Shown: positions 35,963-43,230 of the stretch, piece by piece | Layout of the letters: each line of letters opens with the position of its first letter | Numbering within the stretch: position 1 is the first letter of the stretch | Source: an uncultured Gemmatimonadales bacterium | GTDB lineage: Bacteria > Gemmatimonadota > Gemmatimonadetes > Palauibacterales > Palauibacteraceae | Length of the DNA stretch: 64,000 nt | NCBI GenBank assembly: GCA_963783385.1 | Contig: CAWANJ010000001.1 | Span: forward strand, 32,001 to 96,000 | Direction of reading: 5' to 3' | Made by a program: the position numbers and the translations under genes | The notes under the pieces: model-generated | Databases searched by the model: none | Told to the model about the DNA's origin: nothing | What the model saw: the letters and a program-made list of their open reading frames with translations, nothing else

Positions 35963-36772
35963 GTGACCCATCCGTGGTGGTCCTACCCGGCCCTGGCGGC
36001 CGTCGGCCTGGTGGCCGGCGCCCTAAACGTCATCGCCGGCGGAGGCTCCTTCCTCACCCTTCCGGCCATGATCTTCCTCGGCCTGCCGCCCACGGTGGCC
36101 AACGGCACCAACCGAATCGCCATCCTGGTGCAGAACGCCGGCGCCGTGTGGGGCTTTCAACGCCGGCGCCTGGTGGCGTGGCGCTGGGTGGTGCGGGCCG
36201 CCCTGCCGGCCGTGCTCGGCGCGATCCTGGGGGCGTGGCTCGCCGTGCGGATCGGGGACCGCTCCTTCGAGCGCATTCTCTCGGTCCTCATGGTGGTGGT
36301 CTCGCTGGCGTCGCTGTGGCGCCCGGGGAGCGGAGCCGCGCGCTCGGAGAGCAGCGGAGAGCGGCCCGAGGAGCCCGGCCTCGGGCCCGACGCGGTGCCG
36401 GCGCCCCCCGCCGCGGCCGGGGCCAGGCTCGCGCTGGCCGGCGGCTTCTTCCTGGTCGGCGTCTACGGCGGATTCGTCCAGGCCGGCACCGGCTTCCTGT
36501 TCCTGGCCGTGCTGACCTGGGCAGGCTTCGACCTGGTGCGGGGCAACGCCCTCAAGGTGCTCGTCATCCTCCTGTGGACGCCGCTCGCCCTGTGGCAGTT
36601 CGCCGCGGGCGGACAGGTGGACTGGCTGCTGGGGCTGGCGCTCGCGGCGGGGAACTTCTCGGGGGCGCTGGTCGGCGTGCGGCTCACCGTGCTCAAGGGG
36701 AGCCGCTGGGTGCGGCGGGTGGTGACGATGACGGTGATCGCGTTCGCGTTGCTGCTGTGGGTGCTGCCCTAG
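35963..36772 (+). CDS. TauE/SafE (TSUP) family exporter
   Basis: AGGGSFLTLP, ANGTNR, GVYGGFVQAGTG. Confidence 0.9.
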   Translation: MTHPWWSYPALAAVGLVAGALNVIAGGGSFLTLPAMIFLGLPPTVANGTNRIAILVQNAGAVWGFQRRRLVAWRWVVRAALPAVLGAILGAWLAVRIGDRSFERILSVLMVVVSLASLWRPGSGAARSESSGERPEEPGLGPDAVPAPPAAAGARLALAGGFFLVGVYGGFVQAGTGFLFLAVLTWAGFDLVRGNALKVLVILLWTPLALWQFAAGGQVDWLLGLALAAGNFSGALVGVRLTVLKGSRWVRRVVTMTVIAFALLLWVLP

Positions 36773-36924
36773 GGGGAATCGGGCCCCGTGACGCACCGGG
36801 GGGCTTCACTATTAGGGCCGACTAATCTACCTTGCAGGTGGTACTCGGCCGGCCCGGGATGGCCGGTCCGTCGGGGGGCGGAGCTCCGCCCCCGCGTCCC
36901 TCTCCAGGCCTCGAGGAGGCACCC

Positions 36925-37506
36925 ATGATGCCACGCTCGCCCCGACGACGAATCGGCGGCCCGGCCGTCGGCGCCGCCGGCCTGCTCGCCCTGCTGCTCC
37001 TGGCGCCGGTAGCGGCCGGAGCCCAGGTCGACCCGGCGGCTCGAGACGCGATGATCCGGAGCGCCATGAGCGCCGCGCCCGCCGAGGTGTCGCTCGCCGC
37101 CACCGTCCGGGACTGGCAGGGCAACATCCTGCGCGAGGGCACCAACGGATGGACGTGCATGCCCGACATGGCCGACCAGCGGGGCGACTCGCCCATGTGC
37201 CTGGACGCAGTCTGGATGGCATGGGTGGACGCGTGGCAGAACAAGAAGCCCTTCCGCGCGGACCGGATGGGCTTCGGCTACATGCTCCAGGGCGACTTCC
37301 CGACCAGCAACACCGACCCCTACGCACAGAAGGCGACGCCCGACAACCAGTGGCTCGAGGACTCGGGTCCGCACGTCATGATCCTGGTGCCGGACGCCAC
37401 GGCCCTGGCGGACCTCCCACGGACGCCGCATGAACAGGGACCCTGGGTGATGTGGGACGGAACACCCTACGTCCACATCATGCTCCCGGTGTCCCGGAAG
37501 CCCTAG
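36925..37506 (+). CDS. Secreted hypothetical protein
   Basis: GGAGG RBS, signal peptide, SAMSAAP, REGTNGWTCMPD, PMCLD, GYMLQGD, GPHVMI, PWVMWDGTPYVHIM. Confidence 0.8.
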   Translation: MMPRSPRRRIGGPAVGAAGLLALLLLAPVAAGAQVDPAARDAMIRSAMSAAPAEVSLAATVRDWQGNILREGTNGWTCMPDMADQRGDSPMCLDAVWMAWVDAWQNKKPFRADRMGFGYMLQGDFPTSNTDPYAQKATPDNQWLEDSGPHVMILVPDATALADLPRTPHEQGPWVMWDGTPYVHIMLPVSRKP

Positions 37507-37572: not shown

Positions 37573-38964
37573 TCAGCCGCGCGGGCTCCGCCTCCGCTCG
37601 CGATAACGCTCCATGCGGCGCGCCAGGGTGCGCCGGTGGACCCCGAGGATCTCGGCCGCCCGGGTCCGGTTTCCCCCGGCCTCCTCGAGCACGCGGAGGA
37701 TGTACTCGCGCTCGAGCCGGTCCAGGTCCCAACGCTCGTCCTCGGCCCGGCTCAGGAGATCGCCCGCCTTCCCGCGCCCGCGGCGCGTGGTGGGCTCGAA
37801 CCGGATGGCCGGCTGGCCCGCGTACAGGAGCATGGCCCGCTCCACGAAATGCTCCAGCTCGCGCACGTTTCCGGGCCACGGGTATTCCTGCATGCGTACG
37901 AGCGTCTCGGGCAGGATGGCGGGCGCCTCGACGTCGTTCTCCTCGGCGAAGCGTCGCCGGAAGTGCTCGGCCAGGAGAGCGATGTCCTCGCGGCGCTCCC
38001 GCAGGGGCGGCACCCGGATCGGAAATACGTTGAGGCGATAGAACAGGTCTTCCCGGAAGCGGCCCTCCTCGACCGCCTCCTCGAGGTCCTCGTTGGTCGC
38101 CGCCACGAGGCGGAAGTCCACCGGCACCGTCCCCCCGCCGCCGACCCGACGGATCCGCCGCTCCTCGAGCACCCGGAGGAGCTTGACCTGCACGTCCACC
38201 GGGACCGTGGCCAGCTCGTCGAGGAAGAGCGTGCCGCCGTGCGCCTCCTCGACCAGACCGGGACGATCGGCGTGCGCCCCCGTGAAGCTCCCCTTGCGAT
38301 GCCCGAACAGCTCCGCCTCGAGCAGACTCTCCGGGAGCGCCGAGCACACCACGGCCACGAACGGGCCCTCGGCCCGCGGCGAGATCTCGTGGATGGCGCG
38401 GGCGACGAGCTCCTTCCCCGTCCCGGTCTCTCCGGTCACCAGCACGGTGGAGCGCGTCGGGGCGACGCGCCTCACCAGGCCCAGGGCGCGCCGGATGGCC
38501 GGAGAGCGACCGATGATTGGGACGCGCAGGTCGTCCTCGCCCTCCTCGCGGCGGCGGAGAGACCGGCGCCGCTCCGACTCCGCCGCGGCCCGGGTGACGG
38601 CCTCGATCAGGCGGTCGGTCTGAATCGGCCGGGCGAGGCAGTCGGCCGCGCCCCGGTGCATGGCCTCGACCGCGTCCGCCACGTCCCCTTCCTCCGCGAC
38701 CGCCACCAGGCGGGCATCCGTCTCGAGGGGATCGATGCGGGAGAGCACCTCGAGGCCCGAGATTCCCGGCAGCCGGGCCGCGAGCACGGCGGCGTCGAAG
38801 CGGCCCTCACGCAGGCGAAGAAGCCCCTCGTCCCCGCGACCGCACGCCTCGACCCGGAAGCCGCGCTCGCCCAGGACGGCGGCGAGAGCCGCGCGCAGGC
38901 GGGGGTCGGCCTCGACCACGAGGACCCTGTAGACACTGCGCCCGTCGGCAGGCTTGTGTGGCAC
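37573..38964 (-). CDS. Sigma-54 enhancer-binding protein (NtrC-like) with degenerate receiver domain
   Basis: GETGTGKE, ELFGHRKGSFTGA, LFLDE, REDLFYRLNV, WPGNVREL, Fis-type HTH GNRTRAAEILGV. Start uncertain. Confidence 0.92.
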   Translation of the reverse strand: MPHKPADGRSVYRVLVVEADPRLRAALAAVLGERGFRVEACGRGDEGLLRLREGRFDAAVLAARLPGISGLEVLSRIDPLETDARLVAVAEEGDVADAVEAMHRGAADCLARPIQTDRLIEAVTRAAAESERRRSLRRREEGEDDLRVPIIGRSPAIRRALGLVRRVAPTRSTVLVTGETGTGKELVARAIHEISPRAEGPFVAVVCSALPESLLEAELFGHRKGSFTGAHADRPGLVEEAHGGTLFLDELATVPVDVQVKLLRVLEERRIRRVGGGGTVPVDFRLVAATNEDLEEAVEEGRFREDLFYRLNVFPIRVPPLRERREDIALLAEHFRRRFAEENDVEAPAILPETLVRMQEYPWPGNVRELEHFVERAMLLYAGQPAIRFEPTTRRGRGKAGDLLSRAEDERWDLDRLEREYILRVLEEAGGNRTRAAEILGVHRRTLARRMERYRERRRSPRG

Positions 38965-39117
38965 CGCGGCGTCCCTCGCTATGTTCGCCTCGTCCGGGGT
39001 CCGCCGCGGGGCCTCGAACGGCCGGGTGGGCGTCGCCCTCACTTCAGGGGATTGTCCAAGATATGCGATGCGGAGAGACGCGAAACGGGAAGAAACGCCG
39101 AAGAGGGGGAATTTCCG

Positions 39118-39161
39118 AAAAAGTCGAAACCCCCGACCGGACTCACGGGTCCGATCGGGGG
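39118..39161 (-). terminator. Intrinsic terminator
   Basis: Minus strand: CCCCCGATCGGAC-ccgtga-GTCCGGTCGGGGG followed by TTTCGACTTTTT. Confidence 0.7.
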
Positions 39162-39417
39162 CCTCGTTGCGTCGGCGAGCCAGAGTCAGTCGGTTTGGCG
39201 TCACCCCGTGTGGTGACCTGACTTGAGGCTCTTTCCCTCGTCGTCACTCGAAAGTCACGACTCAGGCGTCCCCGTTCCCGGGACTACGGCTGCGGCCGAC
39301 GACCTTGCAGCCGGTCTGGGCGGGCCAAACTCCCGCCAGACGAGACGCCCTCCGGCCCGAACCGTCGGGCGTCGCATCCCACATCGTGGTCGCCGAAGCG
39401 TCCTCGTCGTGGGCGGA
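39118..39417 (-). ncRNA. Candidate ~300-nt structured sigma-54-dependent non-coding RNA
   Basis: Bounded by a -24/-12 promoter and a terminator; a run of consecutive hairpins including C(UUCG)G and U(UUCG)A loops; no credible ORF. Confidence 0.55.
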
Positions 39418-39428
39418 GGAATGATAGA

Positions 39429-39443
39429 GCAACGCCCGTGCCC
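39429..39443 (-). promoter_or_regulatory. Sigma-54 (-24/-12) promoter
   Basis: Minus strand GGGCAC-GGGCG-TTGC matches TGGCAC-N5-TTGC apart from the first base. Confidence 0.75.
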
Positions 39444-39544
39444 GGCCGGGCCACCTGCCGACCGCATCCGGCGCGCGCCGCGCACCGTATGGGCTCCGGC
39501 CGAATTTCGGGGGCCACGGGCTCGAAGCGAGAAGCCGCCGCTCG

Positions 39545-39593
39545 CGACAAAGTGTCACGAACGACGGCTCCCGGGCCCCGACAGAGTGTCACG
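39545..39593. promoter_or_regulatory. Tandem upstream activator-like sites
   Basis: CGACAAAGTGTCACG (39545-39559) and CGACAGAGTGTCACG (39579-39593), 14/15 identical, each with palindromic core GACA-N3-TGTC. Confidence 0.65.
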
Positions 39594-39801
39594 CCAGGGG
39601 CGAGGCGCGGCCCCGGAGACGACCCTCCGGGTGCGCCCGCCCGGGGGCTACGCCTGCGACGTCACGGTGCGGCGCGACGTGCCGCGCCAGGCCATCAGCC
39701 GGAAGATGGCCGGCACCCCCGGCGACCTGGCGAACCTGCGCGAGATTCTCAGGACGCTCGCTCCCGCCGCCTGAAGCGTCCCGGTCATCGGCCGGTGGGC
39801 C

Positions 39802-42800
39802 TCAGCCGCCCCCCTTCTTCCCATTGCCGGCCGCGCTCTTGTCGGGATAGGCCGGCGCGGGCGGCACCGGGTTCGGGTGCTCCCGCATCTCCTTCCGGAG
39901 CTCCTGCACGGCGGCGCGGAGCTGCGCGTCGTGGCCCCCGAAGGTCTGGTGCGGCGCGTTGTCGACCTCGATGTCGGGATCGACCCCGTGACCCTCGATG
40001 AGCCACTGCCCCTTCGGGCCGTACACGCCCATCTCGGCCGCCGAGGCGATGCCGCCATCCACGAGCACGTTGTCGAAGCTGAGCCAGATCTCCCCGCCCC
40101 ACGTCCGGGTGCCGAGCAGCTTGCCCAGCCCCAGCCGCCGAAAGCCCGCGCTGAACGCCTCGCCGTCGGATGCGGTGTGCTCGTTGATGAGCGCGATCGT
40201 GGGCCCGCGGAAGGCCTCCTGCATGTTCCAGCGTGGGCGCCTCCTTGCGAGCCTTGAAGTACATCCAGGCGCGCCGCATGAGTTTCTCCAGGATCCAGCT
40301 GTCGATGTTGCCGCCCCGGTTGTTGCGCACGTCGATGATGAGGGCCTGGCGGTCGAACACGGGGTAGAACTGGCGCTCCCATGCGGCGATGTCCGAGGAG
40401 CCCATGGCGCGCAGGTGCACGTACCCGATCGAGTCGTGGCTGAGGCTGTCGACCTCGAGCCGGCGCGTGTACTCCCACTCGTCGTAGCGCAGGTCGGCGG
40501 CCTGCCGCTCGCCGATGGGCGTCACGATGGCCCGGCGCTCCGCGCCGCCGGCCGCCGGCCGGATCGACAGCAGGATCTGCTTGCCCGCCTTGTGCCGCAG
40601 GAGGGCGCGGTAGTCCGGGACGGACAGCGTCGAGACGCCGTCGATGGCCGTGAGCACGTCGCCGTCGCGCGCCTCGACGCCCGGCCGGGCCAGCGGCGAG
40701 AGCTGGTCGGGAAGGTCGGGGTCGGCGCGGTAGATGTGCTCGACCCTGTAGCCGCCGGCCTTCGGATCCCGCTGCAGCCGCGCCCCGAGCGAGGCCACCT
40801 GGATGGTGTCCTGGCCCGGGCGCATGTCGCCGCCCACCACGAAGGTGTGGAGCGCCGAGAGCTCGGCCACCATCTGGCCGATCACGTCGGACAGCTCCTC
40901 GCGGTCCGTGACCCGCCGCGCCAGCGGGAGGTACTTCTCCTCCATGGCCGGCCAATCGACGCCGTGCATGCCGGGGTCGTAGAAGTAGTCACGGTGCAGC
41001 CGCCAGGCCTCCCGAAACATCTCCATGTACTCGCGCCTCGGGTCCACCTGCAGGGTCCAGTCCCCCAGGTCGACCTGGTCATCGGCCAGCTTGGAAGGAG
41101 GCTTGGGGCCGGCGCCGAACACGTACAGGTCGTCCCCCTTCCGCACCAGGATCTTCTTCCCATCAGCCGACAGCTCGTAGCTGCGCACGCCCTCGACGAG
41201 GGTGGTGGGCTCGGGCTCGTGGTTGGTGATCTCGAGCGCCTCGAGCTTCCTGGTGCGCCGCTCCCCGTTCTCCGACGAGAGCCAGAAGAGCGTCCCGTCC
41301 CCCGCCGACAGGTCGGCGTAGTTGCCGGGCGGGACCGGGACCTCCTCCAGGCGGTCCTGGATCCCCTGAAGCTGGACCCGTACCCGCGGGGGGCGTCGAG
41401 GTCGTGTCGGACCCACCCTTCCCCCTCGCCGTGCGATCCGCCCCCGCCTTGCCACCGCGCTCGCCGGACGCCGACGGACGCGGGCTCGAGCTCGTCGTCG
41501 GGCCGGAAGGGCGAGCGCGTGCCGGGCTCGAGGGCGAGCGCGTAGATCCTGGTGGTGCGGGTGAAGTAGGGCTCGGGCTGCCGGGCGCCCCACGGCGAGC
41601 CCACCGAGGACACGAAGTGCCGGTCGGAGAGGAGGTACAGCCACTTCCCGTCCCGGCTCCATGAGGGCGAGTAACTGGCGTAGCGCGTCGTCGTCACGGG
41701 TGTCGTCGAGCCGTCGTCCACGCCGTACAGGACGACCCGCTCGAACCCGTTCTCGAGCGGCTCCACGTAGGCCAGCCAGCGCGAGTCGGGCGACCAGGCC
41801 AGGTCCCCGAAGTCCCCGTACTCCGAGCGGGCGATCTCCTTGGAGCGCCCCGTGGAGGTGTCCAGGATCCAGAGCCGGTGGTCCTTGTCGTAATGGGCGA
41901 CGCGACGCCCGTCCGGCGCGGGAACGGCGTCCCAGCGCATGATCGTGCCGTCGTGGGTGAGCTGACGTGGCTTGCCGACGCCGTTGGCCGGCAGCTTCCA
42001 GATCTCGACCTCTCCGGTGGAGTCCGACAGCGCAATCAGCGAGTCGCCGCCGGGAGTGAAGCGGGCCCGCCGGTAACGCACGCTGTTGGTGCGTGTCGCT
42101 TCCACGAAGCGGCCCTGCCGCGCGGGGGCCACGAACAGCTGCCCGCGGGCCGTGAGGACGACCCGGTCGCCCGTGGGGGAGAGGTGGACGGCGGTCAGGT
42201 AGTCCATCGGGTCGTGGACCCAGTGGGGCCGAAGCTGGTCGAAGTCGGAGGCCAGGCGAATGGGAACGGTCCGATCCTGGCCGGAGGCGATGTCGAGCAC
42301 GTGGAGGTCGGCGCCGGCCTGGTACACGACGCGGCCGTCGGAGAGGGAGGGTGACTCGAGGTTGTAGACCTCGTGGTGCGTGAGCTCGTTAGGTCTCCGC
42401 CGTTCTCGTCCATGGACCACAGGTTCATGACGCCGTCGCGGTCCGAGGCGAACACGACCCGGCCCTCCCACAGCATCGGGTCCTTGCTCGTGCCCGGATA
42501 GTCGGTGGTCAGCGGCGTGGCCTCCTTCGCTCCCGTCTCGTACTTCCACAGCTGCTGCACGCTCCCGCCCTCGTAGCGATCGGTGTGGCTGCCCTGGAAG
42601 GGGAGGCGCGTGAAGTACAGGACCTTGCCATCGGGGCCGTAGACGCCGTCGGAGGCCTGCGCCAGCGGGAGCACCGTGCGATCGTGCGTCGCCGTGTCGA
42701 GAGCCACGAGCTGCGCGTTGGGAAGGGTCGAGTAATGACGCGTCGTGTACAGGATCCGTCCGTCGGGCGTCCATCCGACCACGGTCGCCCCGCCGCCGTC

Positions 42801-43230
42801 CCAGCTCCGCCTCACGGGCACGCCGCCCGCGATCGGCATCGTGTACACCTCGGTCGGGCCCTCGTAGGAAGCCGTGAACGCGAGCGTGCGGCCATCGGGC
42901 GAGAAGGCCGCGTCCCGCTCCTCCCGCAGCCCGGTCGTGAGCCGTCGTGCCTCGCCGCCGTGGATCCCGACCGACCACAGGTCGCCCTCCGCCGTGAACA
43001 CGATCGTCGTGTCGTACAGGGCCGGATACCGGTAATAGCCCGGCTCGTCGGCGCTGTCGGGCGCCGGCCGCCCGGACGGCGCGCGGCCCGGCGCCCGGTG
43101 GCCGGGGCCGCGCTGTGGCGAAGGCGGTCGGCGAGGAGGCGGCGATCGCGGGGGCCGGGGCGGTCGCGGTCAGCGAGGCGACGAAGATCAGGACGGTGGA
43201 GAGCACCGACGAACGGCGGGCGGTCATCAC
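39802..43230 (-). CDS. Tricorn-like S41 protease, secreted (about four frameshifts)
   Basis: FTAEGDLW propeller start, DYFYDPGMHGVDW, ELSALHT, PDZ, IIDVRNNRGGN, ASDGEAF, GTRTWGG, IEGHGVDPD. Frame changes near 43050, 42390, 41400 and 40230. Confidence 0.92.

Follow-up and report, generated by a model that had tools for sequence, protein, structure and literature searches.

An undescribed structured RNA family of the Gemmatimonadota and its candidate sigma-54 promoter and activator in one genus

What is encoded in a non-coding stretch of about 820 bases that holds two palindromic sites, a promoter-like element, a run of hairpins and a terminator, all read from one strand? The question is raised by a 64,000-nucleotide stretch of contig CAWANJ010000001.1 (assembly GCA_963783385.1) from an uncultured Gemmatimonadales bacterium, referred to here as the window. 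The non-coding stretch lies on the minus strand between the end of a tricorn-type protease gene (39785) and the GTG start codon of a sigma-54 activator gene (38964), and its elements follow one another in the order: two sites of 15 nucleotides (nt), the element GGCAC-N5-TTGCT, the hairpins, and an intrinsic terminator. The best explanation of the locus as a whole, to which we assign a probability of roughly 0.6, is that a non-coding RNA of about 300 nt is encoded here by a free-standing gene, that this RNA belongs to an undescribed family, and that it is part of a sigma-54 module in the genus of the window.

The evidence that carries this explanation begins with the fold of the RNA. The structure was read from an alignment of ten copies (A1) by alignment folding and by eye, a covariance model was built and then iterated (R1-R3), and slid alignments served as controls. 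In A1, aligned by MAFFT and fitted to no model, 95.7% of the cells are paired, compared with 35-49% in slid alignments, and 27 pairs show double changes, compared with 2-4. With 20 copies (A3) the values are 96.4% against 34-47% and 35 double-change pairs against 4-8. With 41 copies from across the phylum (A5), pairing reaches 91.3% of the cells (slid alignments, 33-43%), and double changes are seen at 59 of 63 pairs (slid alignments, 20-27). The fold of the single sequence between 39420 and 39110 has a minimum free energy of -168.8 kcal/mol, compared with -138.7 +/- 6.1 kcal/mol for shuffled sequences (z = -4.96), and none of 100 shuffles was as good. The alignment folds give the same hairpins. 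Thus, the consecutive hairpins that the original prediction had described from the letters alone are reproduced by both routes, and the structure covaries in relatives. Because G-U pairs are frequent (for example, 11 at pair 13-39), the RNA is assigned to the minus strand only.

In addition to local hairpins, the alignments support two pseudoknots, both of which covary though neither was ever part of the search model. In the first (PK1), the loop of hairpin P1 pairs with the internal loop of the P5/P6 domain; 90.2% of the cells are paired and all six pairs covary. The loop occurs as GUUUGG, GUUCGG, GUGUGG, GUGCGG, GUCUGG, CUUGAG or GAUCAG, and the partner strand matches each change. In the second (PK2), the loop of hairpin P2 pairs with a strand that immediately precedes the terminator. 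The alignment supports six inner pairs, with exchanges such as C-G in 37 sequences and U-A in 4, or U-A in 31 and C-G in 6. The outermost PK2 pair (A5 columns 54-331) was withdrawn, since it is unpaired in 25 of the 41 sequences. A multi-helix fold with two long-range pairings joins the conserved core of 230 nt.

The RNA is predicted to span 39417 to 39118 on the minus strand, its start being placed by the -12 element and its 3' end by the terminator; sequence conservation within the genus begins at about 39413. Its 5' domain differs between lineages and shows compensatory changes within the genus. This domain consists of hairpin H1 (39378-39413), which is capped by CGC-UUCG-GCG (39391-39400) and in which genus members differ by A-U to G-U and G-U to G-C exchanges, and of hairpin P0 (39344-39373), in which pair 49-76 changes from A-U to G-C in two of four sequences. 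The core starts with P1 (39314-39341), whose loop GUUUGG (39330-39325) is the 5' strand of PK1 and whose six outer pairs all covary in the 41 sequences. P2 (39288-39312) carries a 13-nt loop with CGUCGG (39301-39296), the 5' strand of PK2; 97.6% of its cells are paired and five of six pairs covary. P3 (39268-39284), GUCCC/GGGAC with the loop GGGAACG, is 98.5% paired and covaries at all five pairs. The UUCG-capped P4 (39240-39261) varies between 12 and 103 nt across the family. It is followed by a purine-rich joiner, GAGGGAAAGAG (39229-39239), in which GGG-purine-AAG-purine-G is kept phylum-wide and whose last three bases also open P5. The P5/P6 domain (39177-39231) is made of P5a (39231-39227/39181-39177), P5b (39223-39218/39189-39184) and P6 (39217-39200), the last with 96.7% of cells paired and six of six pairs covarying. 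The 3' strand of PK1, CCAAAC (39198-39193), lies inside the internal loop of this domain, and that of PK2, CCGACG (39170-39175), stands just before the terminator.

The terminator occupies 39118-39166. Its stem (39166-39125) has 18 pairs, of which 12 are G-C, around a 6-nt loop, and is followed by a U run at 39122-39118; 14 of 15 stem pairs covary in the 41-copy alignment, so that the predicted terminator stands. The same is true of the claim that the region has no credible open reading frame (ORF). Each of the three sense frames of the core in the window contains two or three stops, none of the frames stays open throughout the 24 family members examined, and the length changes of P4 take all residues modulo 3 across the family.

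RNA libraries contain the stretch in the form of short molecules. Parts of it occur in six metatranscriptome runs; the analysis used four of them, from four studies of salt marsh and sediment, and left out runs with small word shares (X19 and X20). Each of the four contains short contigs (85-279 letters) at a word depth of 179-1947, and these lie on 39155-39406. In the same four runs the flanks 38700-39143 and 39440-39800 are uncovered, to which no weight is given, as missing cover is no proof of anything here. The contig borders directly on adapter letters at 39406 in two runs of different kits, and also at 39166 and 39172. Contigs of this kind cannot give strand, ends or level, and are at most a weak hint on ends.

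In keeping with the original prediction, which recognised no known RNA family, none was matched. Rfam 15 gave no match in the whole window at the gathering threshold, only microRNA-type noise of at most 21 bits on the region at E <= 10, and nothing on the RNA in ten diverse members at E <= 1. Identity with RNase P RNA, transfer-messenger RNA or signal recognition particle RNA was ruled out, all three being found elsewhere in the genome. A full-text literature search returned no paper on a structured RNA of Gemmatimonadota; likewise, 'Gemmatimon' and 'Longimicrob' occur nowhere in the main texts of PMC11109978, PMC8632094 and PMC5737381, in whose supplementary motif lists an unnamed candidate could sit. 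The RNA family is undescribed.

Another candidate identity is a highly divergent 6S RNA of the phylum, or a functional stand-in that binds RNA polymerase. Like 6S RNA, the RNA is free-standing, a few hundred nucleotides long and found at high word depth in RNA libraries, and 6S RNA (RF00013) was detected neither in the genome of the window nor in five near-complete phylum genomes that carry the RNA. This silence means little, however, because RF00013 matches only 5 of 14 control genomes. Moreover, the fold supported by covariation has several branches, contains two pseudoknots and ends in a local terminator, whereas a 6S RNA would be expected as a rod with a central bubble and a stem closing its two ends, none of which is seen here. 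The distribution is patchy as well: the RNA is missing or undetected in 130 of 151 phylum genomes sampled and is multi-copy in some. We give this identity hardly any credence.

How widely is the RNA distributed? A blastn search recovers the region from three further genomes of the genus; in other genera it finds the 3' 230 nt alone, and in the genome of the window no second copy. Covariance models give matches in the family (16 of 114 genomes), in the order (14 of 145, none of them in its second family) and in the phylum sample (21 of 151), where matches are concentrated in two families (f4, 9 of 31; f6, 9 of 16); the large genome searches used strict filters, by which weak members may be lost. 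A degenerate pattern of P2-P3 matched 26 loci in a genome collection. The model confirmed 21 of them, labelled Gemmatimonadota, Longimicrobiales, Longimicrobiaceae, Gemmatimonadales, Gemmatimonadaceae or uncultured bacterium, and left the five from other phyla unconfirmed. The same pattern matched 27 metagenome contigs, 21 of them confirmed by the model, and no viral contig. The known copies number 60 or more. Among the matches found, the family is confined to Gemmatimonadota. That the RNA gene and the family are real is near certain.

Several genomes carry more than one copy: five in G078, two or three in G012, and two each in G027 and G077. On contig C11 of G013, a tandem pair (L014 and L049) lies about 430 nt apart, each copy with TTGACA-type boxes and a terminator, the second almost without P4. 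On contig C86 of G077, two copies (L048 and L057; 2174-2420 and 8518-8764) have identical model scores and lie 6.3 kilobases (kb) apart with different flanks, a DUF5117 protein at one and a nucleotidyl transferase at the other. Multiple and tandem copies, together with the presence of the RNA in only 1 of 8 and 1-2 of 36 genomes of two genera, are what would be seen if it were part of a mobile element or a defence system, as a guide, retron-like or phage RNA. Yet no protein neighbour is conserved, the neighbours are ordinary chromosomal genes, synteny is stable within genera, and there is no match in phage or plasmid collections or in viral contigs. A mobile or defensive RNA is therefore very unlikely.

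The neighbours also bear on whether the RNA is a gene in its own right. Outside the genus they include a CBS-domain protein, a DUF5117 protein, a convergent PolA, a YbaK-type editing protein, a nucleotidyl transferase and a GIY-YIG protein; in further cases, an L27 ribosomal protein stands upstream and a chorismate mutase is convergent, or a RelA/SpoT-domain protein stands upstream and an RNase H is convergent. An all-against-all comparison of flanking ORFs found synteny within genera and spurious frames across the RNA, and no conserved neighbour. Nor does the RNA hold a constant same-strand position upstream of a recurring gene family, as a riboswitch or 5' leader would. The activator lies downstream of the RNA in the genus of the window only. 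Unrelated and often convergent neighbours, together with sigma-70-type promoters outside the genus, indicate a free-standing gene rather than a leader of the activator.

A long attenuating leader of the activator gene had been offered in the original prediction as the other possible reading of the locus. In such an arrangement the RNA would act in cis, and the sigma-54 promoter would serve positive autoregulation by read-through of the terminator. The RNA and the activator gene are on the same strand, the terminator ends only 155 nt upstream of the activator GTG, the two travel together in the genus, and some read-through is possible at any terminator. On the other hand, the same RNA precedes unrelated or convergent genes elsewhere, the terminator is strong (18 pairs and a U run), and relatives of the activator at about 55% identity have no such RNA upstream. 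Furthermore, promoter-like boxes lie between the terminator and the activator gene at 39058-39085 on the minus strand: TTTCGC (39085-39080), 16 nt, and TATCTT (39063-39058). These boxes were picked by eye and are putative; all four genus members (the window, G003, G001 and G002) retain both boxes at this 16-nt distance while the spacer sequence drifts, which suggests that the activator may have a promoter of its own. The leader reading did not survive this comparison well, and we consider it improbable.

If the gene is free-standing, what would drive it in the genus of the window? A sigma-54-type promoter is predicted on the minus strand at 39443-39428, with the letters GGGCACGGGCGTTGCT: GGCAC (39442-39438), five bases and TTGCT (39432-39428), so that the GG and GC doublets lie ten bases apart within TGGCAC-N5-TTGCW. 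Upstream are two enhancer-like sites, which are both exact matches to GTGACACTNTGTCG, share 93% identity and are spaced by 34 nt. The distal site, GTGACACTCTGTCG with the core GACA-N3-TGTC (39579-39593), is centred at about -169 from the predicted +1, and the proximal site, GTGACACTTTGTCG (39545-39559), at about -135. Motif counts are unpersuasive inside the window: GGCAC-N5-TTGC with at most one mismatch has 8 matches against 15.1 expected, and the site pattern with at most two mismatches occurs at least twice in 42 of 100 shuffles. They become clear once the whole genome of 3.54 megabases is counted. Among its 54 GACA-N3-TGTC sites, the only pair less than 80 base pairs (bp) apart is that of the window, as expected for a regulator dedicated to one RNA, and the promoter is one of just four perfect matches to GGCAC-N5-TTGCW on both strands, against about 12 expected from base composition. 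Both the near-identical palindromes and the -24/-12 element at 39429-39443 are thus where the original prediction had placed them.

Conservation adds to these counts. Four genomes represent the genus, that of the window and G001, G002 and G003, and in all four the promoter, both sites at their 34-bp spacing, the RNA and the activator are kept together. The sigma-54-type element stands 92-93 nt upstream of the RNA core, and the proximal site begins 114-124 bp upstream of the -24 element, in each of them. The sequence between the elements has drifted past blastn detection in the two more distant genomes: similarity to G002 is limited to the RNA, and similarity to G001 begins at the promoter. Retention of the sites, their spacing and their distance from the promoter while the flanks drift amounts to a phylogenetic footprint. 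The whole module also occurs on five metagenome contigs with activators 85-100% identical; since these probably come from the same or a sister species, they are not independent support.

The neighbouring gene (37573-38964, minus strand, GTG start) encodes an NtrC-family sigma-54 activator of 463 amino acids with a degenerate receiver, an AAA+ domain with GSFTGA and a Fis-type helix-turn-helix. Pfam assigns Response_reg to residues 14-123, Sigma54_activat to 150-316 (E 3e-69), AAA_lid_14 to 322-384 and HTH_8 to 414-454. Its closest solved relative is NtrC1 of Aquifex (1ny5, 4l4u), and its Walker A motif and GSFTGA loop are intact. The column of the phospho-acceptor aspartate holds alanine in all four genus members; their acidic pair reads EAD, ETD or DRD, and the threonine and lysine columns hold alanine and arginine. 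Two relatives from other genera, at 56-57% identity, keep EDD and the aspartate, threonine and lysine, and one of them follows a histidine-kinase gene. No histidine-kinase gene adjoins the activator of the window. Its recognition helix differs from that of these relatives, in keeping with a DNA site of its own. Judged by these residues, the 'orphan' of the original prediction is a pseudo-receiver activator, which would no longer be phosphorylatable at the canonical aspartate. The genome also encodes rpoN (C9:573158-573634). As far as sequence can show, then, the predicted undescribed module of an activator and a sigma-54 RNA holds, with rpoN present and a full enhancer-binding protein as neighbour, and sigma-54 control of the RNA by that neighbour is probable. 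Three elements go beyond the original prediction: the two covarying pseudoknots, the phylum-wide family with mostly sigma-70-type promoters, and the activator without a phospho-acceptor.

A number of points weigh against this explanation. The activator is one of ten strong sigma-54 activators in the genome, and its binding to the two sites is predicted. Sigma-54 control is not family-wide: in a scan of 44 loci, which was crude, 18 have TTGACA-N16/17-TAnnnT boxes, one has a weak sigma-70-type match and 19 have neither type. The spread of the RNA is patchy, with 1 of 71 genomes of the largest family (f3) positive by model and 1 of 101 by blastn from an f3 member, and many genera of the family to which the window belongs are without it. 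The first letters of the RNA-library contigs fall on 39406 or 39402, which is 11-15 nt inside the predicted +1 (39417), although contigs cannot define a start; position 39406 is 23 nt from the GC of the -12 element, a greater distance than expected of a sigma-54 start. Loss of the extreme 5' end during library making, or processing of the RNA, would explain this. At the other end, the contigs stop at 39155-39172, before or just inside the terminator stem, while the end at 39118 is predicted; library losses at a structured terminus or real processing may account for this. Finally, the mode of action proposed below draws on analogy and on the degree of structural conservation.

Candidate regulatory sites were also seen at other members of the family. 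In two other lineages (L050 and L051), a weaker sigma-54-type element, GGCAC-N5-GTGC or GGCAC-N5-CTGC, is accompanied by a GACG-N3-CGTC palindrome about 115 bp further upstream. In family f4 (L094-L104, L108 and L111), an inverted repeat was noted by eye about 90-110 nt upstream of the RNA core, GGGAATTCCC in L104, TTCAAGG-TTT-CCCTGAA in L095 and looser elsewhere; neither a sigma-54 element nor a canonical -35 box is visible by eye at this repeat, which has the look of a regulator site of a third kind, distinct from the others. The metagenome contigs L141 and L152 carry a perfect 17-bp palindrome, TGCGACAG-C-CTGTCGCA, 171 nt upstream of the RNA core of a divergent member. It contains the same GACA-N3-TGTC core as the sites of the window, and a convincing -24/-12 element was not found at these two loci. 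Sigma-54 promoters considered by eye in the metagenome members L152, L136 and L153 were rejected, as none has a convincing -24/-12 spacing.

Based on these observations, the module may work as follows. The activator would bind the two GACA-N3-TGTC sites as dimers, at about -135 and -169, contact the sigma-54 holoenzyme at 39443-39428 and drive open-complex formation, and the RNA would start near 39417 and end at the terminator. Because the receiver lacks its phospho-acceptor, the activator would have to be controlled by something other than a kinase acting on the canonical aspartate, or simply by its own level. In the genus of the window, the RNA gene would have been placed under a sigma-54 promoter, most other lineages using sigma-70-type promoters. 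The RNA itself is proposed to act in trans through its fold, by binding a protein or a small ligand, and not via a base-pairing seed. Such a structure-dependent mode is held tentatively, at somewhat less than even odds.

Modules of a sigma-54 activator and an RNA are known: LuxO-Qrr1-5, GlrR-GlmY, CbrB-CrcZ and NtrC-NrsZ are examples. Like these modules, the locus has an NtrC-family activator gene beside a short RNA gene, which has a -24/-12 promoter and a terminator of its own, with activator sites further upstream, at about -100 to -170. Since the RNAs of these modules include base-pairing regulators, the RNA could be a small RNA of the Qrr or NrsZ kind, with its conserved unpaired stretches, the purine-rich joiner and the P6 loop, pairing with messenger RNAs. 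However, nearly the whole core is taken up by covarying helices and the two pseudoknots, unlike in seed-type small RNAs, and the main unpaired stretch is rich in purines, so that its expected partners are pyrimidine tracts rather than ribosome-binding sites. Nor is 300 nt a usual length in this class. Neither Hfq nor CsrA was found in the genome, which is 92% complete, and this speaks against the two commonest modes of small RNAs. We therefore consider a base-pairing regulator unlikely. A CsrA sponge, suggested by loops that contain GGA, was dropped, because no CsrA was found and, outside the family, GGA is not a conserved feature of the loops. The trans-acting, structure-dependent RNA that we favour differs from those of the known modules in several respects: it is about 300 nt long with six or more helices and two pseudoknots, and is not a small RNA of seeds or repeated motifs; its family is older than the module and has sigma-70-type promoters elsewhere; and its activator lacks both a phospho-acceptor and an adjacent kinase gene, in a genome in which neither Hfq nor CsrA was found.

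A parallel in form may be drawn with the orphan, complex-folded bacterial RNAs raiA motif, OLE, ROOL and GOLLD (PMC10861870, PMC12286853). Like these, the RNA is lineage-restricted and free-standing, has a heavily covarying multi-helix fold with long-range pairings, occurs at high depth in RNA libraries, and has a function that is not evident from its neighbours. It matches none of their Rfam models, even at E <= 1-10. It is smaller than OLE, ROOL and GOLLD, belongs to a different phylum and, in one genus, is tied to a dedicated transcription activator, as they are not known to be. A bolder reading is that it represents a new class of ornate, self-contained RNA (a ribozyme, a trans-acting ligand sensor or a self-assembling RNA), captured in one genus by a kinase-deaf sigma-54 activator. 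Self-assembly via the two loop pairings is conceivable, as covariation cannot tell intramolecular from intermolecular pairing. There is perhaps an outside chance that this is right.

The surroundings of the module show several further features. Toward the 5' side of the module, window 39649-39719 on the minus strand is a 3'-end remnant of a small DUF378 gene. Similarity to G003 begins at 39719, within the intact 71-residue DUF378 ORF of that genome (L123:3572-3784, Pfam E 2e-21), and upstream of 39719 the window carries the tricorn gene end, as G002 does. This breakpoint and the tricorn end place the left border of the RNA-activator module near 39719. The tricorn-type protease (39785-43230, minus strand) is split into two ORFs that overlap in different frames: 40882-43230 has a PD40 repeat, whereas Tricorn_C1, PDZ_Tricorn and Peptidase_S41 fall in 39785-41662. 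The split could stem from a frameshift, from a break in the gene or from faulty assembly. On the other side, Pfam gives no match for two ORFs on the plus strand (36832-37506 and 35974-36825) that lie downstream of the activator gene and converge with it. Elsewhere in the genome (G000), another of the perfect GGCAC-N5-TTGCW matches lies on contig C2 at about 29514 on the plus strand, just downstream of a different sigma-54 activator gene (C2:28567-29067), and may mark a second pair of activator and target.

Large bacterial RNAs whose tertiary pairings have strong support are now seldom discovered, and to our knowledge almost no RNA biology has been done in the Gemmatimonadota. The family offers a well-defined core of 230 nt with two pseudoknots and is present in salt-marsh and sediment RNA libraries. 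Some of its members are in complete phylum genomes, those of family f6 with one copy each, and might be studied in culture, should any such genome come from a cultured strain. Across its lineages it amounts to a natural promoter-exchange experiment, with sigma-70 in most and sigma-54 with a private activator in at least one. The dead-receiver activator provides a handle on this system: its trigger would tell when the RNA is needed, which would be the shortest route to the function of the RNA.

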